Positions 1 to 15,220 of a stretch of 15,220 nt of DNA are shown here, one piece after another. A program made the position numbers and the translations under genes. Positions within the stretch are counted from its first letter, which is position 1. Each line of letters opens with the position of its first letter. Location: the NCBI GenBank assembly GCA_046497275.1, contig JAWOFX010000017.1:1-15220 (forward strand). Direction: 5' to 3'. The DNA is from Promethearchaeia archaeon. GTDB lineage: Archaea; Asgardarchaeota; Lokiarchaeia; Sigyniarchaeales; SOKP01. The notes beneath the pieces are model-generated. The model did no database searches. It was not told where the DNA came from and saw only the letters and a list, made by a program, of their open reading frames with translations.

Positions 1-25
1 CAAAAACACAGAAAAAATATCACAA

Positions 26-35
26 TTTTAATATA
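26..35 (+). promoter_or_regulatory. Putative archaeal TATA box for the aminotransferase (probably leaderless or short-leader mRNA)
   Basis: TTTTAATATA lies 32-23 nt upstream of the ATG at 58, preceded by an A-rich BRE-like tract. No SD motif before the ATG. The AT-rich background lowers specificity. Confidence 0.45.
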
Positions 36-57
36 TTTTCACGGTTATTCTTAATCT

Positions 58-1368
58 ATGGAAAAAGAGTCAAATAAAAAATACATTGGCACCTTATCCC
101 AAAAAGAATTATTAGACCTTTATGCAAAGTATGTAAACAAGCCAAAAGTTAAGATCTTCAAGCAATTTGGACTCAGTGTTATTCCGGGAGAACGCGAGGG
201 GATTCATTTGAAAACTTTGGACGGACCAAAAAAGGGACAACCTCCGATGGATATTATTAATTGTCGATCAAGTGGAGGCGTATTTAATCTGGGTCATCGA
301 CACCCTGAAATCGTAAAAACTTTAAAAGCTGCAATTGATGGTGGTCTTGATCTTGGAGATCATATGCTCTTATCAGAACAGAGAGCATTATTAGGAAAAA
401 AACTTGCGGGCTTATTTCCTGGGGATTTAACTAAAACTACGTTTGGTGTAAGTGGAGGTGAAGCAATTGATACAGCCATCAAATTTTCACGTGCCTATAC
501 AAAACGAAAAGGATGTGTTTCAGCAATTGGAGGTTATCATGGGCATACTGGATTTGCATTATTAACGGGAGATCCAGATTTTAAGGATCCATTCTTATGG
601 AATTTTCCTGAATTCAAGCAAGTCCCTTTTGGGGATCTAAAGGCGATGGAGAAGGTTGTAACAGAAGAAGTAGCTTGTGTAATATTAGAAGGAATTCCAG
701 CCACTGGAGGTGTGTTAATAGCACCTGAAGGATATTTTCCCGGAGTTAGAGAATTATGTGATGAGAAAGGTGTAATGCTTATTCTGGATGAGGTTCAGTC
801 AGGTTTAGGTCGAACTGGAGAATTTTGGTCATTTGATGGGGGACTATATCCAAATGATAAGATAGTTCCGGATTTTGTAGTTTGCGGAAAGGGAATGAGT
901 TCTGGAATCTATCCTCTTTCTACATGCACATATAAATCTGAAATCGAAAAATCAATCTTCAAAGAAGATCCATTTATCCATATTTCTACTACGGGAGGAT
1001 CAGATATTGGATGTGCTGTAGCGTCCAAAATGTTAGATATTCAATCTGATCCTAAATTCTTAGCTCATGTAAAAGAAATGGGAGAGCTTTTTGGAAAGGG
1101 TCTGAAAGAAATTCAAGAGAGTCACTCTGATCTAATTAAAGAAGTAAGAGGACGAGGATTAATGTGGGGTATGGAATTCTTCGAAGAAATGGATGGGCAA
1201 TTAAATATGCTCCATTGTATTAATGAAGGTATACTTCTTAATTATTGTGGAAATAACAAAGCTACTGATATTATAATGCCTCCCTTAATAATTACTAAAG
1301 AGCAAATATTTACAGTGATAGAAAAAATAAGTAATGCTGTAGCAAGATTAAGTCAACTGAAAACATAA
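58..1368 (+). CDS. Class III (omega-type) PLP-dependent aminotransferase, putrescine/acetylornithine aminotransferase-like fold
   Basis: 436 aa. Motifs: FNLGH, SGGEAIDTAIKF, GYHG, LILDEVQSGLGRTG, and GKGMSSG with the PLP lysine K278 (889-891). Also HISTTGG, VRGRGLM and PPL near the C-terminus. Confidence 0.95.
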   Translation: MEKESNKKYIGTLSQKELLDLYAKYVNKPKVKIFKQFGLSVIPGEREGIHLKTLDGPKKGQPPMDIINCRSSGGVFNLGHRHPEIVKTLKAAIDGGLDLGDHMLLSEQRALLGKKLAGLFPGDLTKTTFGVSGGEAIDTAIKFSRAYTKRKGCVSAIGGYHGHTGFALLTGDPDFKDPFLWNFPEFKQVPFGDLKAMEKVVTEEVACVILEGIPATGGVLIAPEGYFPGVRELCDEKGVMLILDEVQSGLGRTGEFWSFDGGLYPNDKIVPDFVVCGKGMSSGIYPLSTCTYKSEIEKSIFKEDPFIHISTTGGSDIGCAVASKMLDIQSDPKFLAHVKEMGELFGKGLKEIQESHSDLIKEVRGRGLMWGMEFFEEMDGQLNMLHCINEGILLNYCGNNKATDIIMPPLIITKEQIFTVIEKISNAVARLSQLKT

Positions 1369-1376
1369 AAATTGCC

Positions 1377-1390
1377 TTTTTTTTTCTTTT
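1377..1390 (+). terminator. Oligo-T archaeal-type terminator
   Basis: TTTTTTTTTCTTTT begins 9 nt after the aminotransferase stop codon. Confidence 0.55.
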
Positions 1391-1472
1391 ACACTTAGTT
1401 TATAATTTTAATTATATAATATTTTAAAATGGCAACAAATATTATGAATGGATTTTAGTAAAAAAATAATCA

Positions 1473-1480
1473 TTTATAAT
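1473..1480 (+). promoter_or_regulatory. Putative TATA box for the acyl-CoA synthetase gene
   Basis: TTTATAAT lies 28-21 nt upstream of ATG 1501, with an A7 run just upstream at 1460-1466. Confidence 0.4.
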
Positions 1481-1500
1481 TATTTTGTCTTATAAGAACT

Positions 1501-2946
1501 ATGGACCTTGAAAAGCTTTTTCGTCCTAAAAGTATGGCAGTTGTGGGAGTATCAAAGAGCAATAATCTGTCCCCTGGTAGGATAATTTTATTAAAAAATG
1601 AGTTCGAGATGAATGTTGATGTATATGGAATCCATCCTACAGGTGGAACTGTAGAGGGAGTACAGATATATAAAAATTTAGATGAATTGCCTTTAACTCC
1701 AGATATATTAACTATTGCTGTAGGACCTGATGATACTATAGGTTATATTAAGCAATGTGCGGATTATGAGATTCCCGCAAGTATAATTATCGGGGGTGGA
1801 TTCGCTGAAGTAGGCGGTGAAGGGATAAAACGTCAAAAACAGCTGGAAAAAATAGCATTTGATAATGATATTGCGGTATTGGGACCAAACTGTATCGGTG
1901 TATATTCTCCTCCCTTGATAGATACGATATTTCTGCCAACAGAGCGAATTACGCAACCTCCAAAGGGTTCAGTAGCATTGATCAGCCAATCTGGGGGTTT
2001 TATGATAGATCAATTTTTTGTTAAATTTAGTGAAAGGCATGTTGGAGTCTCTACAGCGGTTTCAATAGGAAACCGAGCAGTTGTAGATGAAACTATGTTA
2101 TTAGAATACTTCAGTCAAGTTGATAAAGAAACTACAAATATTGCATTTTATCTCGAAGGTTTCAAAGAAGGAAGAGCGAGAGATTTTCTAAAAGCAGCTC
2201 AAAAATCTGATGATACAGTAATTACATTTTTTGGTGGTAAAACAAAAGAGGGGAAAGTAGCCACCCAATCCCATACAGCAAGTTTAGCTGGAGATTATAC
2301 AGTTCTTGAGTCAGCTTTACGACAACATCAAATAATAAATCCTCATTCCGAGCGAGAATTAATTACGTGTTTAAAAGTATATGATGTTCTAGCACATAGA
2401 CACAATCCTTTTGGAGACAACGTAGTTACATATGGCGATGTTATCATTGTGTCAGTTTCTGGAGGTCATGGCGTTTTAGCAGCAGATATGCTAAAGAATT
2501 ATGGGCTTAATGCTGTTAAACTTACTGAAAAAGAAAAAGTGGATCTTAAAGAACTAATGAATCCAGTCGCGAGAGAAATAGCTGCGTTTGAAAATCCGAT
2601 TGATTTAACTGGATCGGTTTTAGATAAAGATATAGAGAATTTCATACGTTATTTATCTGATATAGACCGGATTGAATGTATTATTTTGCTATTATTACCA
2701 TATCCACCGAATATATCATTTCAGATAGGTAGAAGAATCGCGAATATTGTAATGTCAAAGAATAAGCCAGTGGTTTGTTTTGTACCTTTTGTACCGAAAT
2801 ATGAGATGATTATTCAATCTCTTGAATTAGCTTACATACCAGTATTTCATAGTATTAAAGAAACAGTTCAAGCGGTGAGTGCTTTAAAACATCGGACTAG
2901 AATTTATAATGTTAAGAAAGATAATCTATTCTGGGAAGATAGATAA
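1501..2946 (+). CDS. Acyl-CoA synthetase (NDP-forming), alpha-subunit type: CoA-binding plus ligase domains, no ATP-grasp domain
   Basis: 481 aa. Motifs: LFRPKSMAVVGVS, GGGFAE, VLGPNCIG, ISQSGG, AVSIGN, FYLEG, SHTASLAG with the phospho-His H258 (2272-2274), SGGHGVLAAD and NPIDLTG. Confidence 0.92.
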   Translation: MDLEKLFRPKSMAVVGVSKSNNLSPGRIILLKNEFEMNVDVYGIHPTGGTVEGVQIYKNLDELPLTPDILTIAVGPDDTIGYIKQCADYEIPASIIIGGGFAEVGGEGIKRQKQLEKIAFDNDIAVLGPNCIGVYSPPLIDTIFLPTERITQPPKGSVALISQSGGFMIDQFFVKFSERHVGVSTAVSIGNRAVVDETMLLEYFSQVDKETTNIAFYLEGFKEGRARDFLKAAQKSDDTVITFFGGKTKEGKVATQSHTASLAGDYTVLESALRQHQIINPHSERELITCLKVYDVLAHRHNPFGDNVVTYGDVIIVSVSGGHGVLAADMLKNYGLNAVKLTEKEKVDLKELMNPVAREIAAFENPIDLTGSVLDKDIENFIRYLSDIDRIECIILLLLPYPPNISFQIGRRIANIVMSKNKPVVCFVPFVPKYEMIIQSLELAYIPVFHSIKETVQAVSALKHRTRIYNVKKDNLFWEDR

Positions 2947-2994
2947 GATTTTTAGAGATCAAACTTATTAATTTGGATGTTCTCATTTGGGAAA

Positions 2995-3003
2995 TTTTTT
3001 TTT
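2995..3003 (+). terminator. Oligo-T terminator between convergent genes
   Basis: T9 run in the 66-nt gap between the convergent stop codons at 2946 and 3013. Confidence 0.45.
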
Positions 3004-3012
3004 AAGATCTAA

Positions 3013-3831
3013 TCAAACCACATCTATCAATCTATCCAATTTTACTATTGATTTTCTTACATAAGATTTATCAGTTATACTCAATTTTATCGCATCTGCT
3101 GGACATATATCCGCACATCTACCGCAGCCCCGGCATTCCTCAGTAATAATTATTTCGCCATTTTCTTCTTTTATAGCGTTCACAAAACAAATATCATCTA
3201 GACATTTTCCACAATGTATACATGTTTCATGGTTGACCTCAACTTGAACTCCTGGCATTTTTTTTATTTTCGATCCTATTTTTTTGTCGAGGATGGGGGT
3301 TATTCTCCATAAACAACAACACTCGCAGCAGTTGCATATACTCAAGAGTTTTTGCCCATCTTTCACTCCTAGCCATTGCTTATCCAGTAAATTTCTCCCA
3401 ATCATATGAACTAAACCAACGTCTCTACATTTTTTAATATGCTCTAATGCCTCTTCTTTAGTTACCAATTTTCCTAATTGAGGATTAATATCCAATACAC
3501 CTTCTCCCAAGAATAAGCATCCGAAGTCAATAGGATAATTTTGGCAATTCATACTTTTTCTACAGATACAAAAATTCATAATCCAATGATATTTAGCTTT
3601 CTCTATGAAATATTCAAGTATTTCCGAGGGAAGCACATAGCTTTCAGGTCCATCAACACTCTTATCTACTTCAACTACTCTATCTAAAGGAAGGTAGATA
3701 ATATCATCTTCATTAAAGAGTAAAATATCAAAAACTTTGGTTAATATCGGAATTCTTGTTAATTTTGCAATTTGTTTTATTTTTGGGAAAAGTTTCTTTA
3801 GAATATTAACAAACCATAGGGGTCTAGCCAT
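3013..3831 (-). CDS. Cys-rich 4Fe-4S binding protein: N-terminal CxCR/CNCCxCCC module plus C-terminal 2x[4Fe-4S] ferredoxin domain
   Basis: 272 aa with 19 Cys: CICRKSMNC...GCLFLG, ICNCCECCC, CIHCGKCLDDIC and CRGCGRCADICP. Confidence 0.9.
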   Translation of the reverse strand: MARPLWFVNILKKLFPKIKQIAKLTRIPILTKVFDILLFNEDDIIYLPLDRVVEVDKSVDGPESYVLPSEILEYFIEKAKYHWIMNFCICRKSMNCQNYPIDFGCLFLGEGVLDINPQLGKLVTKEEALEHIKKCRDVGLVHMIGRNLLDKQWLGVKDGQKLLSICNCCECCCLWRITPILDKKIGSKIKKMPGVQVEVNHETCIHCGKCLDDICFVNAIKEENGEIIITEECRGCGRCADICPADAIKLSITDKSYVRKSIVKLDRLIDVV

Positions 3832-3906
3832 AATAATTTTTTATATTTATTAGTTTTTAATCAATTATCATTATATCGAATTAGCTATTATTTTATTCTT
3901 TTGTTA

Positions 3907-3923
3907 TTTTGAATAATTCAAAA
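3907..3923. promoter_or_regulatory. Palindrome in the middle of a divergent promoter region (candidate operator)
   Basis: TTTTGAAT-A-ATTCAAAA is a perfect 8-bp inverted repeat. Its centre (3915) is 84 nt from start 3831 and 87 nt from start 4002. Confidence 0.35.
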
Positions 3924-4001
3924 ATGAAATAATTTAATTCTATAATTACTAATTATCCTATTAAGTATTAATAAATCAATTTTTAATAAGAATGAATATA
4001 A

Positions 4002-6062
4002 ATGAGTGAAAAAGCTAAATATTTAGATCTTACTCTTGATATTGAAACTCGTGTAAATGATCTTTTAAATAAACTTACTTTGGATGAGAAAATCAGACTG
4101 ATTCGTGGAAAAGATTTTTGGACTACTGAAGAAATTGAAGGTTTGATTCCTAAATTCGGTATGACTGATGGACCTTTGGGAGTAGCCCGCCATTCGAGTT
4201 CTAAAGTAAAATGCACTAGATTTCCCGCAACAATAGGATTAGCTGCGAGTTGGAATAAAAAATTAGCTTTCAAAATGGGGCAAGCTATGGGGAAGGAAAC
4301 AAAATTAGTCGGTCGACATCAGATTCTTGGACCTGGAGTAAATATTATCCGTTCTCCTTTATGTGGACGAAATTTTGAATATCTTAGTGAAGATCCTGTC
4401 CTTTGCTCTGATATAGCTGCTGAAATAGTGAAAGGAATTCAATCTGAAGGAACTGCAAGTTGTATTAAACATTATATTACAAATAATTCAGAAACGAAAA
4501 GAACGAAAATTAGTACCGAAGTAAGTGAAAGAGCGTTTTATGAGATATATATAAAAAATTATAAAAGAATAATTGAAAAATCTGATCCATGGGGATTAAT
4601 GGTTTGTTATAATAAAATTAATGGTACATATGGATGTGAAAATAAATATATTTTAAAAGATGTTTTAGTTGACCAGTTAGGCTTTACTGGACATACTGTT
4701 TCAGATTGGGGGGCTGCACAACGAGCATCGGGAACATCCGCCTGTATAAAAGCGGGTCTTAGTTTAGAAATGCCTGGAACGTATATTTTAAGTCGAGTTT
4801 ATAAGAAAAAGAAAGTTAAGCAAGCATTAGAAAAAGGTAAAATAACCGAAAGGGATATAGAATTTATAGTACGACCACTTTTGAGGACATTTATGAGGGT
4901 AAATTTATTTCAAGAGGAGGAAATAACTCCACCCGATAAATTAGATATGCCTGAACATCAAAAACTAGCCCAAATGATAGCGGAAGAAGGAATGGTATTA
5001 TTAAAAAATGATAATAATTTTCTCCCCTTAAATCTTAAAAATGTTAATAAAATAGCCATTTTAGGGCCCAATGCATCTAAAAAATTTGGAAAACCATTCT
5101 ATGGTGGTAGTTCTGCAGTTGTACCCCCTTTTGAAATTACGCCTTATGAAGGTATAAAAGATTATATTTCGGATAAGGCTAAAATTGTCTCGGAACCTAA
5201 GGATGCAGACATAGTCTTTCTGGTGTTAGGTTTAGATCATGGTGCGAGTTTTTTGCTAAACTTCCTTTTAAATAAAGAAGGAGATACTGAAGGGACTGAT
5301 CGTTCTAGTTATAAATTACCAGAAGATCAACGTCATATAATATCTGAGACTTTAAAAGAAAACCCAAATACAATGGTAATTTTAGTCGCCGGAAGCCCCA
5401 TAGATGTCTCAGATTGGTATGATGATGTTCCAGCCATTTTGAATGCTTGGTACCCGGGAATGATGGGTGGTAAAGCACTTGCTCGAATACTTTTTGGCGA
5501 AATCTCTCCATCTGGGAAATTACCAATAACTTATCCTAAAAAATTAGAAGATCATCCTGCACATAAAAACAGACGTCGTTTTCCAGGTGATCTGAAAGAA
5601 TTAAAAATATATTATGAGGAAGGTATTTATGTGGGATACCGCTATTTTGATAAAGAAAAAATTCAACCCTTCTTTCCATTTGGATTCGGACTTTCCTATA
5701 CCAGTTTTGAAATATCAAATCTAGTTTTAGATAAAACCGAGATTCAAGGCGATGAGAAATTTACTATTACGCTTGAAGTTGAAAATATTGGAAAAAGAGA
5801 AGGGGCTGAAGTAGTTCAGATTTATGTTAGTGATGATGAATGTTCAGTAGATCGTCCCCCTAAAGAACTTCAGGCTTTTGAAAAAGTATACTTAGATCCT
5901 GGAGAAAAAAAGAAAATTTCCATTGAATTAGATAAACAAGCATTCGAATTTTATTCCGAAAAGAAACATAAATTTAAAGCAGAATCTGGTTCATTTACAA
6001 TCTGGGCGGGATCATCTTCACGAGATCTCCCCTTATCGAAAAAAATTAGTTTTAAAGAATAA
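4002..6062 (+). CDS. Glycoside hydrolase family 3 (beta-glucosidase/xylosidase-like) with C-terminal fibronectin III-like domain, probably cytoplasmic
   Basis: 686 aa. Motifs: DGPLG, GRNFEYLSEDP, KHY, YNKING, SDW with nucleophile D235, LEMPG, LLKN, GPNA, EGTDR, AWYPG, SGKLP, VGYRYFD, FGFGLSYT and EVVQIY. No hydrophobic N-terminal signal peptide. Confidence 0.95.
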   Translation: MSEKAKYLDLTLDIETRVNDLLNKLTLDEKIRLIRGKDFWTTEEIEGLIPKFGMTDGPLGVARHSSSKVKCTRFPATIGLAASWNKKLAFKMGQAMGKETKLVGRHQILGPGVNIIRSPLCGRNFEYLSEDPVLCSDIAAEIVKGIQSEGTASCIKHYITNNSETKRTKISTEVSERAFYEIYIKNYKRIIEKSDPWGLMVCYNKINGTYGCENKYILKDVLVDQLGFTGHTVSDWGAAQRASGTSACIKAGLSLEMPGTYILSRVYKKKKVKQALEKGKITERDIEFIVRPLLRTFMRVNLFQEEEITPPDKLDMPEHQKLAQMIAEEGMVLLKNDNNFLPLNLKNVNKIAILGPNASKKFGKPFYGGSSAVVPPFEITPYEGIKDYISDKAKIVSEPKDADIVFLVLGLDHGASFLLNFLLNKEGDTEGTDRSSYKLPEDQRHIISETLKENPNTMVILVAGSPIDVSDWYDDVPAILNAWYPGMMGGKALARILFGEISPSGKLPITYPKKLEDHPAHKNRRRFPGDLKELKIYYEEGIYVGYRYFDKEKIQPFFPFGFGLSYTSFEISNLVLDKTEIQGDEKFTITLEVENIGKREGAEVVQIYVSDDECSVDRPPKELQAFEKVYLDPGEKKKISIELDKQAFEFYSEKKHKFKAESGSFTIWAGSSSRDLPLSKKISFKE

Positions 6063-6122
6063 TTATATTCCTTGATAATAATGCGCTAAAAAATTATAAA
6101 ATTCAATTTTATTAACTTAATA

Positions 6123-6145
6123 TTTTTCTTTCTTTTGTCTTTTTT
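6123..6145 (+). terminator. T-rich terminator-like tract after the GH3 gene
   Basis: TTTTTCTTTCTTTTGTCTTTTTT lies about 60 nt downstream of stop 6062. Confidence 0.45.
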
Positions 6146-6224
6146 ATCTATTTTAGATAGTTTTATATTTGTCTTTCACTAAATACATAATATTCTAAAA
6201 CGCTCTCTATCTTGTAGATGCAAC

Positions 6225-7187
6225 ATGGAAATTGATATAGATCTTTTAAAAAGATTTGAAAAAAATATTAGTACTGTATCTCCCGAAAAAGGGATGATTC
6301 CAATAAAAATTCTTGGCTATGGGGAAATCTCTTTAGTTTTTGAAATACTAGATGATGTAAATAAGATAGCATATAAAAGAATTCCGATATTTGACAATAC
6401 AAGGCAAGTTAAAAGACATATATGGGCATATAATGAATATAATCGAATTCTAAAGAATTATGTAGGTTTAAATCTCCCAGATTATGATGCTGCGTGGTTT
6501 TTAGATGAGAATGATAAGATTCAATTTTATTGTGTTCAAGAGAAGATAAACCCTAAATCTGTAGGGAATAGGATTATACATCAAATCTCTAAACAGCAGA
6601 TAAAAACTCTTGTTTTATTAGCTTTGAGAGAAATGAAAAAAGTATGGACATACAGTAAAAATAATATAAAATTAGATTTGGGATTAGATGGACAAATTTC
6701 TAATTTTTCAGTAATGGATTATAATAAAAACAATCCAAATATAAACGAAAATACAAAATTACTCTACTTAGATACGAGTACTCCTATGTTCAAAGTAAAT
6801 GGTAAGGAAGCTATGGAAGCTATATTATTTTTAAAAAGTGCTCCCTCTTTCTTACGATGGCTATTAAAACTGGTCTTTTTAGAAGATACGGTAAATAGAT
6901 ATTACGATTGGAGGCGTGTGTCAATTGATCTCATTGCGAACTTTTTTAAGGAGCAAAGGCCTGATATGATTCTCCCATTAATAGATCTCTCCAACAAATT
7001 TTTCGAAGAAGAAGCCCCGGAGTTCAATATAGCCCCAATTGAATTATCGGAAGTACAAGATTATTACAAAAGTGATAGAGATATGTGGGTTATATTTCAG
7101 AAAGTTCGAAAATTAGATAGGTTTCTAAAAACTAAGATTTTTAATAAACAATATGAATTCTATTTACCCCCAGATATCCTGCGATAA
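6225..7187 (+). CDS. DUF6206-like protein with protein-kinase-like (PKL) fold motifs; putative kinase of unknown substrate
   Basis: 320 aa. Motifs: LGYGEIS Gly-loop (G31,G33), AYKR (K51), E71, YCVQE hinge-like, LDGQISNF (D155-x4-N160) and YLDTS (D183). The DUF6206 name is from recall of similar sequences, not from a search. Confidence 0.75.
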   Translation: MEIDIDLLKRFEKNISTVSPEKGMIPIKILGYGEISLVFEILDDVNKIAYKRIPIFDNTRQVKRHIWAYNEYNRILKNYVGLNLPDYDAAWFLDENDKIQFYCVQEKINPKSVGNRIIHQISKQQIKTLVLLALREMKKVWTYSKNNIKLDLGLDGQISNFSVMDYNKNNPNINENTKLLYLDTSTPMFKVNGKEAMEAILFLKSAPSFLRWLLKLVFLEDTVNRYYDWRRVSIDLIANFFKEQRPDMILPLIDLSNKFFEEEAPEFNIAPIELSEVQDYYKSDRDMWVIFQKVRKLDRFLKTKIFNKQYEFYLPPDILR

Positions 7188-7355
7188 TTAATTTTATATT
7201 AAACTAAGATTATTTAATTAATCTATAAATATAGATTTTAAAAGTAAGAGATAAGTAATTAATTGTAACTGAAATTAGATAGTTATTAAGAGAATATCCA
7301 TTATCTTTCTTAATAATGCTAATAATAATTGAAAATAATTATTTTTTATAGGAAT

Positions 7356-8477
7356 ATGAAGCCAAAAATATTTTTAACTTCGAATGTATTTTCAGCAAAG
7401 GAGATTGGAGAAAATCAAAAAATCTCAGAAAATATTAGACAAAAAATAAAGACACTTTGGAACGAATTAGAGTCTAAATCTGAAATAAAAGTTTTTGATG
7501 GGCGTTTTCCCACTAAAACTCAAATAAAAAACAATATAGAACAATTTGAACCGCACTTAATAGGATGTCATTTAAGTCATCCTATTTCAAGGGAAATGTT
7601 AGAAAATTCAAATGTTTTTGCAGTTTCAACCTCAACTGCAGGTTTTAATCATATTCAGAGACCAGAGGAAGATGATATTATTATCACACATACTCCAGGA
7701 GTTTTATTTGAGACGGTGGCTGATTATACAATATCGCTGATAATGGCAAACTTACGAAATCTAGTTGATCTTCATCATTATGTATGGGAAGGAAATTGGT
7801 CCCCAGATGAAAAATGGGACATGGACCAAAAACTTTCTTCCGTTATAGATAATAAAATTATCGGTATCATCGGGTTGGGAGAGATAGGAATAGAATTGAT
7901 GAAACGATTGTATTCTTGGGGACTTAAGATTATTTATTATGATGTTAAATCAAAAGCAGATATAGAAAAATTGTATCCAGGTCTTGAGTACAAAGAAAAT
8001 ATTAAGGATGTTTTTAAAGAGGCAGATGTAGTTTCCTTGCATGTCCCGCTTAATGCTAATACGAAACACATGATAGATAAGAATTTATTAAAATTGATGA
8101 AAAGAAATGCTCTTTTAGTGAATACAGCACGTGGACCTGTGATACATTTTGAAGAATTATTAGATTTGCTTGAGAAAAAAGAGATCGATATAAATATTGC
8201 TTTTGATGTTTATCCAGAAGAACCTATTGATCCTGGCATATTAAAACGATTTAAAAAAATAAAACTCGATAATCCGGATATGAGAATGATATTAATGCCC
8301 CATAACGCTTCTGCTGATGCCGATACGAGAGGAAAAATGAATATTATGTTTTTAAATGATATAATTCACATTATTGATTCCAAGAGTATTGAGGATTTAG
8401 AGAAAATAAATCTGATTCCCCCACATAGAAAAAATTTATATGAAACTAAGTGGCGAATTCTAAACTATTGGAATTAA
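7356..8477 (+). CDS. D-isomer-specific 2-hydroxyacid dehydrogenase (glyoxylate/hydroxypyruvate reductase-like)
   Basis: Motifs: TAGFNHI, HTPGVLFETVAD, GIIGLGEIG Rossmann loop, DVVSLHVPL, NTARG (Arg), DVYPEEP (Glu) and PHNASA (His), so the catalytic triad is intact. I prefer ATG 7356 (MKPKIFLT, 373 aa) to the track's TTG 7329, whose extra residues (MKIIIFYRN) read like AT-rich intergenic DNA. Confidence 0.9.
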   Translation: MKPKIFLTSNVFSAKEIGENQKISENIRQKIKTLWNELESKSEIKVFDGRFPTKTQIKNNIEQFEPHLIGCHLSHPISREMLENSNVFAVSTSTAGFNHIQRPEEDDIIITHTPGVLFETVADYTISLIMANLRNLVDLHHYVWEGNWSPDEKWDMDQKLSSVIDNKIIGIIGLGEIGIELMKRLYSWGLKIIYYDVKSKADIEKLYPGLEYKENIKDVFKEADVVSLHVPLNANTKHMIDKNLLKLMKRNALLVNTARGPVIHFEELLDLLEKKEIDINIAFDVYPEEPIDPGILKRFKKIKLDNPDMRMILMPHNASADADTRGKMNIMFLNDIIHIIDSKSIEDLEKINLIPPHRKNLYETKWRILNYWN

Positions 8478-8582
8478 ATAATTTTACCAAAATTATGTAT
8501 AATGAAATTGTGATAAATTTAAAGCCTTAGTTAAATAAAATATTACGCAATTTTTTAAAATTAAATAATAATTCTTGATATT

Positions 8583-9149
8583 ATGATTCGATCTTTTATA
8601 TCATTTGACTTGGAAAATGAAGAGAGTATTAAGAATATTGAGGGATTTTTGTCCAGATTAAAGAAAAACCAACCCGGATTAAAACCAATTGAATCAGAAA
8701 ATATCCATCTTACCGTAAAATTTCTTGGAAATATTGAAGAATCAATTGCTCCAAAGATTTATAATATTCTCAACGGGGAAATTAATGAAAAAATTCTTGG
8801 TGGTGAAAGTTATACTTATGAACTTAAAAATGTAGGAAATTTTAGAAATTACCAGATAATTTGGGCTGGCTTATATGGAGATCTTGATTTATTACAAAAT
8901 ATAAAAGATACTGTTGAAGATAAACTTAATGAACAGTTGAAAATAAAAAAGGATAAAAGAAGATCATTTAAACCACATATAACAATCGGGAGATTGAAAA
9001 AAATAGATTATTCTAAATTTGATAGCTTTAAAAATTTAATGAAGGAGAATAGAAATAGGGAATTTGGCAAATTTGTAATCGATAAAATTAAATTAAAAAA
9101 GTCTATTTTAACTCCTAAAGGTCCTATTTATTCTGAATTAACCTATTAA
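8583..9149 (+). CDS. thpR: RNA 2',3'-cyclic phosphodiesterase (2H phosphoesterase, LigT/ThpR family)
   Basis: 188 aa. N-terminal RSFISFD and two HxT motifs (NIHLTVKFLG and FKPHITIGR). The C-terminal KSILTPKGPIY is typical of the family. Confidence 0.93.
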   Translation: MIRSFISFDLENEESIKNIEGFLSRLKKNQPGLKPIESENIHLTVKFLGNIEESIAPKIYNILNGEINEKILGGESYTYELKNVGNFRNYQIIWAGLYGDLDLLQNIKDTVEDKLNEQLKIKKDKRRSFKPHITIGRLKKIDYSKFDSFKNLMKENRNREFGKFVIDKIKLKKSILTPKGPIYSELTY

Positions 9150-9170
9150 CAATAATATGGAAGCTAATAT

Positions 9171-9851
9171 ATGCAAGCAATTATCTGGGATTTAGATGGA
9201 ACTCTTATACATTTCAAAATTGATTTCATCAAAGCTCGACGGACCGCCATGAAAATTTTAAAAAAAAATGGTGTTCCAAAATCGGCGATTTCAATCAAAA
9301 AGAGTATTTTGGATAACGTAAAAGATTCAATTGAGATTCTAAAAAAAAGGGATATTGATCCAGCAAAGATTAATTCCATTATTAAAGAAATTGATGAAGA
9401 GGTATCTAAAATTGAGCATGAAGCCGCGTTAAATGCCACAAGAATTGATGGAATAGAAAAAATTCTTCAATTTGCAAGAGACCAGAATTTAAAACAAGCA
9501 ATTTATACCTTCAATACTAAAAGAAATGCTATAACATCTTTAGAAACCGTAAATTTATTGAAATATTTTAGAATCATTGCTGGGAGAGATAGTGTTGAAA
9601 ATCCTAAACCTCATAAAGACCATCTTTTATTTATATGTAACAAATTAGATGTCAATCCTGAGCAAGTAATAGTAATTGGAGATACGTATCGTGATATAGA
9701 AGGAGCCCTAAAAGTTGGGGCAAAAGCAATCGCTATAAAAACTAAGACCTCTGGATTTGAAAATCAAGAGATCTTCGAACAAGCAGATATAATAATTCCT
9801 CAAGAAAAGATTGCTGAACAATTAATTGATGTTATTAATCGATTACTTTAA
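9171..9851 (+). CDS. HAD-superfamily phosphatase (subfamily IA, phosphoglycolate phosphatase-like)
   Basis: 226 aa. Motif I WDLDGTL, motif II YTFN, motif III NPKP and motif IV IGDTYRD. Starts 21 nt after the thpR stop codon. Confidence 0.93.
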   Translation: MQAIIWDLDGTLIHFKIDFIKARRTAMKILKKNGVPKSAISIKKSILDNVKDSIEILKKRDIDPAKINSIIKEIDEEVSKIEHEAALNATRIDGIEKILQFARDQNLKQAIYTFNTKRNAITSLETVNLLKYFRIIAGRDSVENPKPHKDHLLFICNKLDVNPEQVIVIGDTYRDIEGALKVGAKAIAIKTKTSGFENQEIFEQADIIIPQEKIAEQLIDVINRLL

Positions 9852-9927
9852 AGTATGATAAAAAGAAATTTTAAAAAATAAAAATTTAGGTATTAATAAC
9901 CCAAAATTATGCTTGGTTGGATTTTTT

Positions 9928-10203
9928 CTAATGATCATCCGTACCATCAGGAAATTCTTTCTGATAAAAAACCTCATCAACACTATGAAGAGCACAATTA
10001 AGTTCTTCTAATTTTTGGGTAATAGTTTCAAGATCAAGGTTATATCCTCCTACCTTTATATGTAATGATGCAGTCCTCTGATCCAACTCATCAACATTGA
10101 TTCTGACCACATCAACCCCTTCCATTTCCATAAGTGTTTGGGCAATTAGATCGCTACTAGGATTATGAGGTTTTAATACATCAAGGTAGAATTCATTGCG
10201 CAT
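9928..10203 (-). CDS. DUF211-family small protein
   Basis: 91 aa with the pattern LDVLKPH...GVDVV.I.VDELD...LHSVDEV, which I recognise as the mainly archaeal DUF211 family. Has an SD-like GAGG 6 nt before the ATG. Confidence 0.85.
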   Translation of the reverse strand: MRNEFYLDVLKPHNPSSDLIAQTLMEMEGVDVVRINVDELDQRTASLHIKVGGYNLDLETITQKLEELNCALHSVDEVFYQKEFPDGTDDH

Positions 10204-10209
10204 TTTTTT

Positions 10210-10213
10210 CCTC
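10210..10213 (-). promoter_or_regulatory. Shine-Dalgarno-like site for the DUF211 gene
   Basis: The minus strand reads AAAGAGG-AAAAAA-ATG. Confidence 0.45.
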
Positions 10214-10452
10214 TTTAATTTTATTTTTATAGCACTAATAATATTATATCATTAATATTATTGTTATCTTTTCTAAAGATTTATTTTTTTAAATTTTATT
10301 TGTTTATTTGTATAATCTCCTTCCTAAGTTATTTTAACCAACCCATCATAAATAAAATTTTGTCTTTTTTTAATATACAGCTAAAATTTAAAATTTTAAA
10401 TCAAGAACGATTAATATTTAATAATCTGAAATAATATTCTTTTATTAAGTAG

Positions 10453-10458
10453 TATAAA
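10453..10458 (+). promoter_or_regulatory. Putative TATA box for the 117-aa gene
   Basis: TATAAA lies 29-24 nt upstream of ATG 10482. Confidence 0.4.
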
Positions 10459-10481
10459 TTATAGTTTTCGGAATTTAGACA

Positions 10482-10835
10482 ATGGAGAGTCCGCAAGTAA
10501 AGAACGTCATTGAAAAAGAAGGAGAGATATCAGATGAATTGGATTATGCACTTATGAATTATCTTCTTAGAAATAGGGGAAGTGGTTATACTCCTTGTCA
10601 ACCCCAATTAGTAGAACTAGAAACCGGAAAAGAGGCGATTAAGATGAGTATTGATAATACTTTCATCGGGAAGAATAATGAATTAATGGGATTGGGCATA
10701 GTGGGGAAAATATTTATCGATCCAGATTCATTCGATATAATATATGCCACACCAAAAGAGGAGTTAGAAAAAAATATTCAAAAATTAGAAAAATCAGGAG
10801 TTAAGCCACAAAAGCGACCTAAGGGTAAATATTAA
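10482..10835 (+). CDS. Hypothetical protein (117 aa), no recognisable family
   Basis: Clean ATG..TAA ORF with protein-like composition, more GC-rich than its flanks, an upstream TATA-like box and no competing long ORF. Confidence 0.8.
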   Translation: MESPQVKNVIEKEGEISDELDYALMNYLLRNRGSGYTPCQPQLVELETGKEAIKMSIDNTFIGKNNELMGLGIVGKIFIDPDSFDIIYATPKEELEKNIQKLEKSGVKPQKRPKGKY

Positions 10836-10928
10836 ACTAATTTATCATCTAAATTTTGAGAATGAGATTTTTTGTTATTTGAATAAAAAATTTAATTTAA
10901 CATTCTTATTTTATAATAATGACGGAAT

Positions 10929-11471
10929 ATGACAAACGAAGCCCAAAATCTTGAAACTCTAATTAGAGAATATTTGTTAGACGAGGGATTACTTCGAAAA
11001 CGTATTGAAGATGAACATCTTGAATTTGGTTTTCAATTTGTATTTCCTCCCGTTAAAGAAGGATCGGGACAGAAAGTCCAAAATCTGGTGGTATATCAAC
11101 CAAAGAAAAAAGATTTAATTATAATATCTATAGGCACTCAAATCTCTAAGCCCCATATTGAAGCTCTTGAAGAAGGGAAAGAGCGCAAAATACGGTTTTT
11201 TGTTGAGCTTAAGAAATTATTGCTCTTCAAAGACCTTTATTTTAGATTTGATATAAATAATTATAAATACGAAATATCCGATCAAATATTTTTTTCTAAA
11301 GAAAAACTTATATCTAAAAATGAATTTTTCGATTCTGTGAGAAAAGTTTTTAATATTCAAGCATACAGTAATTTATTGCTTTTAGAGTTCTGCTCTGGAA
11401 AAATAAACCAAGAAGATTTTGAGAAAACAGAAAAATTCGAACCGGGTCCAGGATTTTCACTATATACCTAA
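10929..11471 (+). CDS. DUF2299-like archaeal protein
   Basis: 180 aa. The N-terminus (IREYLLDEGLL...EFGFQF.FPP) and the overall pattern resemble DUF2299 as I recall it; not confirmed by a search. Confidence 0.6.
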   Translation: MTNEAQNLETLIREYLLDEGLLRKRIEDEHLEFGFQFVFPPVKEGSGQKVQNLVVYQPKKKDLIIISIGTQISKPHIEALEEGKERKIRFFVELKKLLLFKDLYFRFDINNYKYEISDQIFFSKEKLISKNEFFDSVRKVFNIQAYSNLLLLEFCSGKINQEDFEKTEKFEPGPGFSLYT

Positions 11472-11483
11472 TAACTTGATTTG

Positions 11484-12011
11484 GTGATTTTAATTTTTAA
11501 AAATTGGCTTCAAGCATTAGATAAATTAGATTATGTTCAAGGAAAAGAACGTCCTGAGGTTGACTGCATATTATGTGCCGTTCGTGATGATGATGAGAGG
11601 GTAAAAATTCTAAAAGTGTATCAAGATGAGATTCTTTTTGTATGTTTAAATCTTTACCCTTATAATCCCGGGCATTTACTCGTTATTCCTATTAAACATA
11701 TAAAAGAGTATAGCGATTTATCTAAACAAGAGATCCTACATATCTCAAGAACAATTCAAGGATTACAAATGCTTTTAGATAATCTTTATCATCCGCATGG
11801 TTACAATGTTGGATTTAATCAAGGGAGAGATGCCGGGGCTTCAATTGAACATCTTCATTTTCATATAGTTCCCCGATATGGTGCCGAACTAGGGTACATC
11901 GATATCGTGGGAAAAACTCGGGTTGTCGTAGAGGGTCTCGATTCAGTGAAAGAAAAAATTGATAAGAACATTGATAAATATCTAAATACTGAATTTTTTG
12001 AGAGTTTTTAA
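11484..12011 (+). CDS. HIT-family nucleotide hydrolase/phosphorylase, Ap4A phosphorylase (Rv2613c)/Fhit-like subgroup
   Basis: Motifs: CILC, LNLYPYNPGHLLVIP, GYNVGFNQG..AGAS and the HIT triad HLHFHIVPR (codons at 11850, 11856, 11862). There is no in-frame ATG, so the start is GTG 11484 or TTG 11481. An in-frame TAA at 11472 rules out a longer N-terminus. Confidence 0.9.
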   Translation: MILIFKNWLQALDKLDYVQGKERPEVDCILCAVRDDDERVKILKVYQDEILFVCLNLYPYNPGHLLVIPIKHIKEYSDLSKQEILHISRTIQGLQMLLDNLYHPHGYNVGFNQGRDAGASIEHLHFHIVPRYGAELGYIDIVGKTRVVVEGLDSVKEKIDKNIDKYLNTEFFESF

Positions 12012-12023
12012 AAAATTTACTGA

Positions 12024-12171
12024 TTTCATATAATTATATTGGGAAGTAGAGATTTTGGAAAGATAGTGCATTCCGAATACGATTCAGTTGAAAATGTAGA
12101 TAAACGAGTTTTGAAAAAAATTATGTGAATTCTTGGTTGAACTATTAGAAGACACTCAGCGTAAGATATAA
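12024..12171 (+). pseudogene. Frameshifted remnant resembling the C-terminus of an M28-family metallopeptidase
   Basis: 12024-12119 reads FHIIILGSRDFGKIVHSEYDSVENVDKRVLKK. Skipping one A of the A7 run (12114-12120) continues LCEFLVELLEDTQRKI* (TAA 12169-12171). The H-S-x-x-D-S-x-E-N-V-D followed by an amphipathic helix resembles the M28 terminal H-T-x-x-D-T-x-x-x-(I/V)-D motif. Confidence 0.55.
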
Positions 12172-12187
12172 AATAAAAGAGAAAAAT
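12170..12187 (-). terminator. T-rich (minus strand) terminator-like tract after the P-type ATPase
   Basis: The plus strand reads AAAAATAAAAGAGAAAAA, i.e. oligo-T on the minus strand, about 45-60 nt past stop 12232. Confidence 0.35.
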
Positions 12188-12231
12188 TATTCTTATTTTT
12201 ACTTTATCGGTGACTCAATAATATATTATTT

Positions 12232-14991
12232 TTAACGATTAAGATAAAATTTTTCATATAATTCTTGGAAAATGAGAATTGGAATAGCAGTAATTAATAT
12301 TACTAACCAATCTATCGGTGGAAGAGGGTATGTTCCAATGAATAATTGCATGAACGGAATGTATATGGCAAAGAGAAGTAAAAGCAAACCCAAGAGAATT
12401 GCTCCGATTAAAATTTTATTTTCTAATGTTTTTTTTGAGAAAATAGTAACGTTTTGACTTACCGCTAAACATTGGAAAGTTTGATAAATAACTAAGGCAG
12501 CGAAAATAATGGTTCTGGCTCTTGAAAGATCTGCGGTTAGAATATCGATCGATAAATTGAATCCTATCGTCCAAAGAAATAAAAATGTGCATCCTAGGGC
12601 ATTGAGCAATCCAAAAATCATTATAAATATCACTAACTTTCTATCCAATAACTTCTCATCAGGATCCCTTGGCTTTCGTTGCATTAGGTTTTTTTCGGGT
12701 GGACTTACCCCTAATGCAAGGGCAGGAAACGTATCGGTTACTAAATTTATATATAATAATTGTATTGCTAAAATTGGAATAAATATATGTCGGAAAAATA
12801 ACAGTCCAAATAAAGTTAATACTAAAACCGTTATAACCTCGCCGGCATTGGCAGACAGTAAATAGCTAATAAATTTTTTTATGTTATCGTAAATTCTTCG
12901 TCCCTCACTTACGGCTTCAATAATATTTGCAAAATTATCATCCACCAAAATCATATCGCTTGCTTCCTTAGCTACATCAGTCCCAGTTATTCCCATGGCA
13001 ACTCCTATGTCGGCTCGCTTTAATGCGGGAGCATCATTTACACCATCTCCCGTCATCACAACAATCTCTCCATGATATTTAAAAGCGTTGATAATGTTTA
13101 ATTTATGTGATGGATTTACTCTTGCAAAAATTTCTGTTGTTTTAACTCTTTCTCGGAGTTCTTCATCTGTGATTTGCTCAAGTTGTTTTCCAGTGATAGG
13201 TTCAGTTTCATGAGATAACGATATTTCATTACCTACAGCCCTAGCTGTCTCTTTATGGTCTCCCGTAATCATAATCACACGAATTCCTGCTTCTCTTGCC
13301 TTCAAAACAGCTGGTCTCGAGGAACTTCTTGGTGGATCGATCATACCAACAAAACCCTCAAAGATAAGATCATTTTCTACCTTTTCGACATTCCTTTCTT
13401 CTAGTAAGCGTTCTGCTTCTTGTTTTTCGATGTCTCTAAAGGCAAATCCTAAAATTCTATAAGCAAAATTTGAAGAAAATCTCTCGCTAGTTATTATGAT
13501 TTTTTCTTTCATTTCTGGATCTAAGCTTTTTATTTGTCCATCTTCCACATAGCTAATACAATGTTCAAGTAAGATATCGAGAGCACCTTTCACCATAATT
13601 CGATATTTTCTGGACTCTTGTTCTTTTGCAACGACACTCATACGTTTTCGGTTGCTGTCAAAGGGAAATAAATATTCGATATCCCATTTTTGTTTAATTT
13701 TTTCAATACCTTGTGCTTTTTCTGCCAAAATTAATAATGCAACTTCCGTAGGGTCTCCAAATGTCTTGTACGGTTTTTCCTCCCCTTGGAACTCTATTGA
13801 TGCCTCATTTGCAAGCGTGGCAATTTCAATAAGAGTTTCTAGATTTTGGCCTGGTTCTGTTTCTTCGGCAGTAGATTTTTCTATTATTTTACCAACATTT
13901 GTGTATCCCGTTCCAGTTACTTCATATTGGTCCAGATCTCTCCAAATTAACTTCACTGTCATTTCGTTTTTGGTCAACGTACCTGTTTTATCTGTACAGA
14001 TTACTGTACTAGAACCGAGTACTTCTACCGCGGGAAGTTTTCGAATAAGCGCATTTTTACGGGCCATTCTTGTGACACCAATTGCCAGAGAAAGAGTCAT
14101 AACTGCCGGTAATCCTTCTGGAACAGCCGCAACTGCGAGTCCTATAGCAAAAATAAACAATTCTGTAAACTCTTCCAGCCCCACAATTATAATTTGAACA
14201 AGGAAAATACTTGCTGCTATTATTAAGATAAAAATCGTTAATTGTTTGGCTAAAAGATTTAATTTTTTTTGAATCGGTGTTTCTTCTCTTTCAATTTCGG
14301 TTAAAGAAGAAGCAATCTTTCCGATCTCAGTGTCAAGACCCGTTCTAACGACCAATCCCTTTCCAGAACCGCTGACTATGGTCGTTCCTTTATGAACCAT
14401 ATTTTCTCTTTCGGCTAAAGGAGTGTCTTCGGGTAGAATCGTATTAATTTTGCGTGTAGGTAAAGATTCTCCCGTCAATATTGCTTCACTTACACTGATC
14501 TCATAACTTTTAATTACACGGATATCAGATGGGACAACATTTCCCGCCTCTAAGAAGACAATATCTCCTGGAACTAAATATTCTGCTTTTAGTTTTACTT
14601 TCTCACCATCTCTAAGAACAATTACTTCACTTTTTGCCAATGATTGCAGCGCTTCGATTGCTTTCTCCGCAGAATATTCTTGGTAAAACCCGAGTCCCGC
14701 ATTTAAGAGTATAACAACCACTATCGCGGTAATTTCAATAATTACACCTAGGTCATTTTCTAATATTCCTATTAAGGCTGTGATCAAGCCAGCTACAATC
14801 AAGATTATTACTAGTAAGTCCCTGAATTGATTAAGAAAGAGTACAACAGGCGAAGTTCCTTTCTTGGCAGCCAATTCATTTTTCCCATATTTTTGTAAAC
14901 GTAGCTCCACTTCTGAGTTATTCAATCCCTTCTCATTTGTATCTAAAGCTTCATATAATTCTTCAATAGATTTTTGATGTGCTTTTATCAT
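12232..14991 (-). CDS. P-type ATPase, type IIA (SERCA/PMR1-like, probably Ca2+-transporting)
   Basis: 919 aa. Motifs: [13 protein letters not shown] (E292), DKTGTLT (phospho-D334), [21 protein letters not shown]5 SANAGE (N715,E718) and M6 INLVTD (N749,T752,D753). About 10 hydrophobic segments. Confidence 0.96.
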
Positions 14992-15220
14992 AATTAAAAA
15001 TAATTAGTAATTTTTGTTTCAGTTTGATTTCAAATAATTGTAATCTCTATTAATAATTTGATTTTATAAATAATCAATTCCTATTGGCTTCTCAAAATTC
15101 TGGAAAATCGCTAAAACAATGAAAAATTCTCGAACTTTGATTCATATATTTCTAAATAGATGTGATATTTAGATAATGGTCTCGTATGTATATTTTATCT
15201 TGAAACTATGGTTTCACGAA

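Follow-up and report, generated by a model that had tools for sequence, protein, structure and literature searches.

DUF6206, a Predicted Protein-Kinase-Like Family Coupled to a Class III Aminotransferase-Fold Enzyme in Asgard Archaea and Bacteria

Introduction

The DNA analysed here is a stretch of 15,220 nucleotides (nt) from a Promethearchaeia archaeon (GenBank assembly GCA_046497275.1, contig JAWOFX010000017.1, positions 1 to 15,220), hereafter called the window. One of its genes encodes a member of the Pfam family DUF6206 (PF19709), a family without an assigned function. A preliminary description, made from the sequence, had listed in this protein the elements of a protein-kinase-like (PKL) active site and had read it as an active kinase of an unannotated PKL family. 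The question raised by the locus is whether the DUF6206 protein is a kinase and, if so, on what kind of substrate and with which partner it would act.

The predicted structure is that of a PKL enzyme, and the residues on which catalysis would depend are nearly invariant in the family. The gene is repeatedly found next to, and once fused with, a gene for a pyridoxal phosphate (PLP) enzyme of the class III aminotransferase fold (AT3). The function proposed here, placed just on the probable side, is that of a small-molecule kinase acting on an amine-bearing alcohol, in one pathway with this PLP enzyme.

The DUF6206 Protein and Its Host

The open reading frame (ORF) starts with ATG and encodes 320 amino acids (aa). 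In a Pfam search, the product matched DUF6206 with an E-value of 1.5e-21 and 77.3 bits (cut-off 30.4), over residues 25–299 and profile positions 15–271 of 271. Besides DUF6206, no Pfam family was matched even at E ≤ 10, and the NCBIfam search of the protein gave one chance-level match and nothing meaningful. The family is not large: at E ≤ 1e-3, the searched library contains 476 of its clusters (50% identity). A literature search found no mention of DUF6206 in the library searched.

A whole-genome search found a single DUF6206 copy in the host. The nearest proteins, 66–93% identical and almost all exactly 320 aa long, come from metagenome-assembled genomes of Promethearchaeota/Lokiarchaeota, Thor-, Hod- and Heimdallarchaeota, and homologous loci are present in the genomes of Promethearchaeum syntrophicum MK-D1 (55% identity) and Lokiarchaeum ossiferum (51%). 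Since the nearest proteins and the genome loci come from Asgard lineages, the host of the window is an Asgard archaeon, a point that had been raised before as a condition and is borne out here.

Some family members are longer. Nine of them (P0132, P0135, P0137, P0140, P0153, P0163, P0169, P0182 and P0190) have 437–527 aa and carry an N-terminal extension of about 130–260 residues in which no Pfam family is found; the extension of P0132 contains a weak DUF2007-like stretch, below the cut-off.

Predicted Fold

The structure was predicted with AlphaFold2 from an alignment (A2) of 52 diverse homologs, with identity down to 25%. The model has a mean pLDDT of 94.9 and a pTM of 0.92, with all residues at 70 or above. 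Its elements follow the canonical order of a PKL domain, beginning with an N-terminal helix, strands 27–32, 37–41 and 48–52, helix 59–80, strands 87–93 and 99–106 and the hinge. It continues with helix 123–146, strand 150–152, the segment from D155 to N160, strand 179–181, D183 and a helical C-terminal part (199–305). The Gly-rich loop lies between the first two strands, and the third strand carries K51 at its end.

Two structure searches point to the same superfamily. In the Foldseek search against the PDB, the top 50 matches were all PKL enzymes. The VIA search, which is independent of Foldseek and covered 48,161 chains, gave 49 PKL enzymes among its top 50 (Z 9.2–12.1), the exception being the achromobactin synthetase AcsD at rank 41. 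The single best VIA match was Bud32 (chain 8k20_B, Z 12.1, with a root-mean-square deviation of 3.9 over 191 residues). Further matches included a putative APH (chain 3csv, Z 11.7), an aminopropanol kinase (6ef6, Z 11.6), amicoumacin kinase (6sum, Z 11.5), NahK (4ocj, Z 11.2), WaaP (6dfl, Z 11.0) and Rio1 (1zp9, Z 10.4, within a RIO range of 9.8–10.4). In the Atlas, the shape neighbours outside the DUF6206 family included APH domains fused to Aminotran_3, with a template-modelling (TM) score of 0.55; one of these was automatically named hydroxylysine kinase/phospho-lyase and also carries a peptidase domain.

No match at E ≤ 10 was found between the window protein and the sequences of solved structures. 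Given the PKL matches of the fold and the lack of a relationship by sequence methods, the window protein is, on its predicted structure, a bilobal member of the PKL superfamily that belongs to none of its described families. The PKL fold proposed in the preliminary description is thus upheld by the AlphaFold2 model, by Foldseek, by VIA and by the Atlas shape neighbours.

Conservation of the Active Site

The motifs that had been listed are all present in the protein at the positions given for them, in a pattern that goes far beyond what chance would produce: ILGYGEISLVF from residue 29, K51 within IAYKR, E71, YCVQEK from residue 102, LDGQISNF with D155 and N160, and LYLDTS with D183. Their conservation was scored over 105 representatives, each from a different 50%-identity cluster, with identity down to about 25%. 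In the Gly-rich loop, G33 is invariant (105/105) and G31 (96), E34 (98) and S36 (89, with T in another 13) are common. K51 is kept in 104 representatives and the adjacent R52 in 88, being Lys in 16 others. The catalytic loop retains D155 and N160 in 104 representatives each, Q157 in 100 and S159 in 92; position 161 is W in 100 of them and F in the Asgard clade. D183, at the DFG position, is found in all 105 and P187 in 104. The positions of these elements are given in Table 1.

Conservation of five residues had been expected. This holds for K51, D155, N160 and D183 (104–105 of 105), but not for E71, the candidate alphaC Glu, which is Glu in just 47 representatives. Position 61 of the same helix (59–80) is E in 50 and Q in 19; the whole Asgard clade has Gln here. 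Within alphaC, conservation is instead seen at Y65 (replaced by H65 in the window protein), Y72 and L76. In the C-lobe, the conserved set of the family consists of Y226, D235, N239, E243, N257, Y280, Y281, D284, W288, R295 and Y310; such a mixture of acidic and aromatic side chains would be in keeping with a cationic substrate.

Because the four catalytic residues K51, D155, N160 and D183 are near-invariant and under the strongest constraint, their pattern argues for an active enzyme and not a pseudokinase. Taken with the fold, the best reading is that the DUF6206 protein would be competent as an ATP-dependent phosphotransferase, in agreement with the active kinase first suggested for this gene.

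Table 1. Positions of the DUF6206 gene, its predicted active-site elements and other genes in the window.
Feature	Position	Strand	Description
DUF6206 protein, predicted PKL-fold kinase, 320 aa	6225..7187	+	ORF, Pfam PF19709, AlphaFold2 model, structure matches
Gly-rich loop G31-Y-G33-E34-I-S36	6315..6332	+	between strands 27–32 and 37–41
K51-R52, candidate ATP phosphate-binding Lys	6375..6380	+	end of third strand, 48–52
Q105, hinge region	6537..6539	+	end of strand 99–106; conserved in 105/105
Catalytic loop D155-G-Q157-I-S159-N160-F161 (D-x4-N)	6687..6707	+	between strands 150–152 and 161–163
D183-T-S-T-P187, putative metal-binding Asp at DFG position	6771..6785	+	after strand 179–181
Class III aminotransferase-fold PLP enzyme, DUF6206 partner	58..1368	+	Pfam Aminotran_3, E 8e-73
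GH3	4002..6062	+	best NCBIfam match exo-alpha-(1->6)-L-arabinopyranosidase, 528 bits, below cut-off
ThpR/LigT-HAD-DUF211-orf117-DUF2299-HIT block	8583..12011		kept across many Asgard genomes; also at loci L200–L203
HAD_2 phosphatase, possible pathway member	9171..9851	+	Pfam HAD_2; recurrent Asgard neighbour
117-aa ORF	10482..10835	+	no Pfam or NCBIfam match

Comparison with Known Kinases

With the APH and choline kinase-like enzymes (PF01636), among them APH(2''), amicoumacin kinase, NahK and macrolide phosphotransferase, the DUF6206 model shares the bilobal fold, the beta3 Lys, the D-x4-N spacing, the metal-binding Asp and a helical, substrate-binding C-lobe. APH-type structures align with Z 10.6–11.7 over about 215–235 residues, at an identity of 7–14%, and PF01636 itself gives no match to the window protein at E ≤ 10. 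In contrast to the H-x-D-x4-N (Brenner) motif of APH, DUF6206 has G153 two residues before D155 (G in 82 of 105) and L154 immediately before it. It also differs from APH in the lack of a conserved alphaC Glu and in invariant residues of its own, R52, Q105, Q157, W/F161, P207 and Y310.

The compact PKL domain without an activation segment is shared with Bud32 (of KEOPS), RIO1/RIO2 and WaaP/Kdo, and the acidic or Ser residue in the Gly-rich loop recalls RIO. Unlike these kinases, the DUF6206 model extends C-terminally by about 100 further helical residues (208–305), and the gene has no link to KEOPS, ribosome or lipopolysaccharide genes. As for eukaryotic-type kinases, the DUF6206 catalytic loop (L-D-G-Q-I-S-N) lacks the His and Arg of HRD and D183-T-S replaces DFG, as had been pointed out at the outset; moreover, N160 and D183 stand just some 20 residues apart, and there is no conserved APE-like motif.

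The closest functional parallel is with systems in which a kinase works with a class III phospho-lyase. A passage of PMC8154272, through its ref. 31, refers to the hydroxylysine kinase/phospho-lyase pair and to ethanolamine-phosphate phospho-lyase. In systems of this kind, a PKL kinase is coupled, and sometimes fused, to Aminotran_3, as is DUF6206. By analogy, the shared logic would be the phosphorylation of a hydroxyl near an amine, followed by PLP chemistry. Hydroxylysine kinase (AGPHD1) belongs to the APH family and has 5-phosphohydroxylysine phospho-lyase (PHYKPL) as its partner; 6ef6, one of the VIA matches, is the microcompartment-associated aminopropanol kinase, a kinase type that likewise works with a lyase. 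DUF6206 differs from the hydroxylysine kinase type in having no PF01636 match and in a partner nearer to putrescine aminotransferase than to the ethanolamine-phosphate phospho-lyase ETNPPL. It can be regarded as a variant of the kinase-plus-AT3 arrangement already known, in which both the PKL family, a distinct one, and its class III partner, an atypical one, depart from the described cases.

The Class III Aminotransferase-Fold Partner

In bacterial-type metagenome loci with enough flanking sequence, AT3 is adjacent to DUF6206 in 46 of 62, lying directly upstream in 43 (often with a 4-nt overlap) and directly downstream in at least three. Among distant family members (27–46% identity) that were looked up individually, four of five have Aminotran_3 directly upstream. 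Many Asgard loci show the same arrangement: AT3 directly precedes DUF6206 in MK-D1, in L. ossiferum, in Hel- and Sigynarchaeota and in some Hodarchaeota, with gaps of −47 to +62 nt. In one protein of 751 aa (P0274), DUF6206 and Aminotran_3 are fused.

The two genes also occur together across genomes. The AT3 orthologs of Asgard genomes are recovered with E ≤ 1e-107; a clear gap divides them from the remaining class III paralogs, whose E-values are about 1e-61 to 1e-65. Among 201 Asgard genomes, 35 contain both genes, two DUF6206 only, 10 the AT3 ortholog only and 154 neither, in counts that include related, non-independent genomes. The AT3 of the window shares a BLAST cluster with the gene that immediately precedes DUF6206 in other Asgard loci, and the bacterial partners are 33–48% identical to it (E 1e-76 to 1e-145). 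By sequence comparison, the partner AT3s form a subfamily of their own.

The PLP core of the partner enzyme is intact. In class III enzymes, the Arg before PPL and the Glu of QGEGG are the positions at which amino and keto acids are held by their carboxylates. The consensus of the partner subfamily reads ETIPATxG, in comparison with EPIQGEGG in acetylornithine-type enzymes, and there is no Arg before PPL. Because the carboxylate-binding Arg and the Glu switch are both missing, the substrate would be an amine or an aldehyde without a carboxylate. These enzymes may not be classical keto-acid-dependent transaminases, and the absent keto-acid site appears to favour a lyase.

Relatives of the AT3 partner occur in other protein contexts. 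It is close to the aminotransferase domain of PigE, and longer relatives are fused to reductive-aminase-like/beta-hydroxyacid dehydrogenase domains (1.7e-95), to adenylation domains and to aldehyde:ferredoxin oxidoreductase. Fusion to APH-type kinases is seen three times (P0278–P0280, E 3e-64 to 2e-58). Since these relatives are fused to APH-type kinases, the pairing of the class III fold with a PKL kinase has arisen with two different kinase families.

A third component is found in many bacteria. A Peptidase_C69/AAT-like hydrolase of the Cys N-terminal nucleophile (Ntn) type lies directly downstream in 26 bacterial loci, and others carry Amidohydro_1 or Amidohydro_3. In the host, a gene on contig C41 (locus L199, 949–2157 on the reverse strand) specifies a protein related to this Ntn hydrolase, with 48% identity over 219 residues. 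Its neighbours are an altronate/galactarate dehydratase-like gene and a GNAT acetyltransferase.

Proposed Function and Mechanism

In the proposed mechanism, an amide would first yield an amine-bearing alcohol, a step that the adjacent Cys-Ntn hydrolase or metallo-amidase would carry out in many bacteria. The DUF6206 kinase would then phosphorylate the hydroxyl of this alcohol. The Gly-rich loop (G31–S36) and K51 are expected to hold ATP, N160 and D183 to bind Mg2+, and D155 to serve as the base for the substrate hydroxyl. The PLP enzyme could then either eliminate phosphate and ammonia in the style of a phospho-lyase or transaminate the amine to an aldehyde. A small molecule among the substrates had already been guessed from the kinase motifs, and the gene context, a metabolic module with an aminotransferase-fold gene, agrees with this guess.

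A wider proposal can be made only tentatively, and is on balance doubtful: that DUF6206 and the class III PLP enzyme, joined in many bacteria by the Ntn amidase, constitute an undescribed pathway shared by horizontal transfer between bacteria of anaerobic sediments and Asgard archaea. In such a transferred pathway, the new PKL kinase family would phosphorylate an amino alcohol derived from an amide-linked compound, candidates for which include N-acyl amino alcohols and the head groups of lipids or glycans, and the class III-fold enzyme without keto-acid binding residues would break the product down.

Several observations weigh against the proposed function, from the fold to the gene linkage. 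The similarity to known kinases is moderate, as seen in the modest Foldseek scores (E about 1e-4, TM 0.3–0.4) and in a best VIA Z of about 12; the best match of the DUF6206 family profile among solved structures (E 0.13) is an unrelated deacylase. No conserved alphaC acid exists among the 105 representatives, so the usual Lys–Glu pair is not a feature of the family, and the ATP site may be non-canonical or weak without it. As for the partner, its nearest solved relative is the putrescine aminotransferase of E. coli (2e-63), ahead of ethanolamine-phosphate phospho-lyase (9e-30), and its nearest relatives and fusion partners favour transamination over phospho-lyase chemistry. The linkage is also incomplete: about a quarter of the bacterial-type loci have no AT3 within 4 kb, the AT3 of the window lies 4.9 kb upstream of DUF6206 and does not share an operon with it, and the Ntn hydrolase of the host sits on another contig than DUF6206.

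As a kinase of the PKL fold, probably acting on a small molecule, DUF6206 gains a biochemical assignment that can be tested. The family is tied to a specific partner, which defines a protein pair or triple open to expression and screening, and the adjacent gene pair is present in two cultured Asgard archaea, P. syntrophicum MK-D1 and L. ossiferum.

Gene Neighbourhood and Alternative Explanations

The genes around DUF6206 bear on other explanations of its role. The one that survives best, although it is unlikely, reverses the direction of the pathway. In a biosynthetic version, the PLP enzyme would, like PigE, convert an aldehyde into a primary amine, and the kinase would phosphorylate a hydroxyl of the product or of its precursor, giving, for example, a phospho-amino-alcohol head group or a piece of a cofactor, from which a HAD phosphatase may later remove the phosphate. 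The closeness of AT3 to putrescine aminotransferase and to the PigE domain fits this version, as do the fusions of its relatives to reductive-aminase-like or beta-hydroxyacid dehydrogenase domains and to adenylation domains. In Asgard loci, including those in which AT3 is adjacent, AT3 or DUF6206 repeatedly has a HAD_2 gene as a neighbour, and a UbiA prenyltransferase adjoins in several. However, the bacterial amidase partners and the hydrolase-rich Asgard surroundings (GH2, GH3, sulfatase) look catabolic, and next to the pair there is no conserved synthase or transferase to consume the product.

Such hydrolases recall the degradation of sulfated or amino-sugar glycans, for which DUF6206 could be an amino-sugar kinase. 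This would be a special case of the small-molecule kinase and has a low probability. It draws on the GH3, GH2, SGSH_C sulfatase, HGSNAT-like acyltransferase and MFS_2 genes near DUF6206 in Asgard loci, on one bacterial locus that also has an SGSH_C sulfatase, and on the presence of NahK, an N-acetylhexosamine 1-kinase, among the structural matches. Nevertheless, the glycan genes are variable, often lie on the other strand and do not belong to the conserved bacterial core; GH3 is found in six of 81 Asgard loci. Class III aminotransferases are also, as a matter of general knowledge, not the usual amino-sugar transaminases. Taken across the window and four other Asgard loci (L002, L004, L007 and L057), the surroundings include GH3, GH2, a sulfatase with SGSH_C and two HGSNAT-like membrane acyltransferases, as well as an MFS_2 transporter, DUF362 and a URO-D-like protein.

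It is distinctly unlikely that DUF6206 is an atypical protein kinase or ATPase, similar to RIO, Bud32 or AceK, which regulates the PLP enzyme or another protein. The rank of Bud32 as best VIA match, RIO matches with Z of about 10 and a GxGE-S loop resembling that of RIO are what such a kinase would show, and the conserved pairing with AT3, including one fusion, would suit a dedicated regulator. Against this, DUF6206 has no activation segment, HRD or APE, and neither Pkinase (PF00069, even at E ≤ 10) nor the RIO model (PF01163, HMMER) matches the window protein. In an hhalign comparison with 30 Asgard Rio1 proteins, the probability was 38% (E 3e-4, 101 columns); the region from alphaC to DFG is ordered alike and D183 pairs with the metal-binding Asp of Rio1, with the register of the catalytic loop off by two, and small-molecule kinases of the APH type score equally well. 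In addition, fusions or translationally coupled pairs of PKL and class III-fold proteins are described, in a passage of PMC8154272, for metabolic kinase–lyase pairs.

The genes that follow DUF6206 in the lineage of the window could suggest a different partnership. The 81 Asgard loci show two recurring arrangements around DUF6206. One, seen in other lineages, has AT3 directly upstream, as described above, and is the link of general occurrence. In the window lineage, the gene after DUF6206 is a 2-hydroxyacid dehydrogenase (43 loci); next come genes for a ThpR-type RNA 2',3'-cyclic phosphodiesterase (56 loci) and a HAD phosphatase (56 loci), and then DUF211, a 117-aa ORF, DUF2299 and a HIT protein. 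The LigT protein passes the cut-off of the ThpR model, and where the dehydrogenase is absent, the gap between DUF6206 and LigT falls to 15–32 nt. The run ThpR-HAD-DUF211-orf117 is intact in four genomes of the same family (98–100% complete) in which DUF6206 and the AT3 ortholog were not found. Because the block is intact there, the adjacency of DUF6206 to ThpR and HAD is lineage synteny and not a functional requirement. An RNA or nucleotide end-processing kinase working with LigT/ThpR, the HAD phosphatase and the HIT protein, which this gene order would suit, is therefore highly improbable and was largely rejected. In the bacterial-type loci, moreover, none of the neighbour clusters that recur is LigT-like.

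The dehydrogenase, LigT and HAD genes often overlap one another by 4–16 nt, which suggests a separate operon. The 117-aa ORF is 65–73% identical in related Asgard genomes and is, judging by this similarity, a conserved small protein.

Distribution

DUF6206 is not specific to Asgard archaea. Its clusters in the Atlas are labelled 76–91% bacterial, mainly Thermodesulfobacteriota and Chloroflexota. Within the phylum of the host, it is present in 37 of 201 genomes, and in 27 of the 86 of high quality, always with one match. It had been suggested that such a kinase in an Asgard host would bear on kinase evolution. This bearing is weak, because the family is labelled mostly bacterial, is found in 37 of 201 Asgard genomes and is linked to metabolism; it is a patchy module and not an Asgard precursor of eukaryotic kinases.

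A few further observations concern individual loci. In two Asgard loci (L027 and L036), a second ORF of the DUF6206 cluster lies 51–82 nt past the HIT gene, as a possible paralog or duplication. In a bacterial-type locus (L082/L083), the AT3–DUF6206 pair is located beside homologs of argC, argJ and argB and an MFS transporter. Finally, ten metatranscriptome runs contain 6–21% of the sampled words of positions 5800–9900 of the window.

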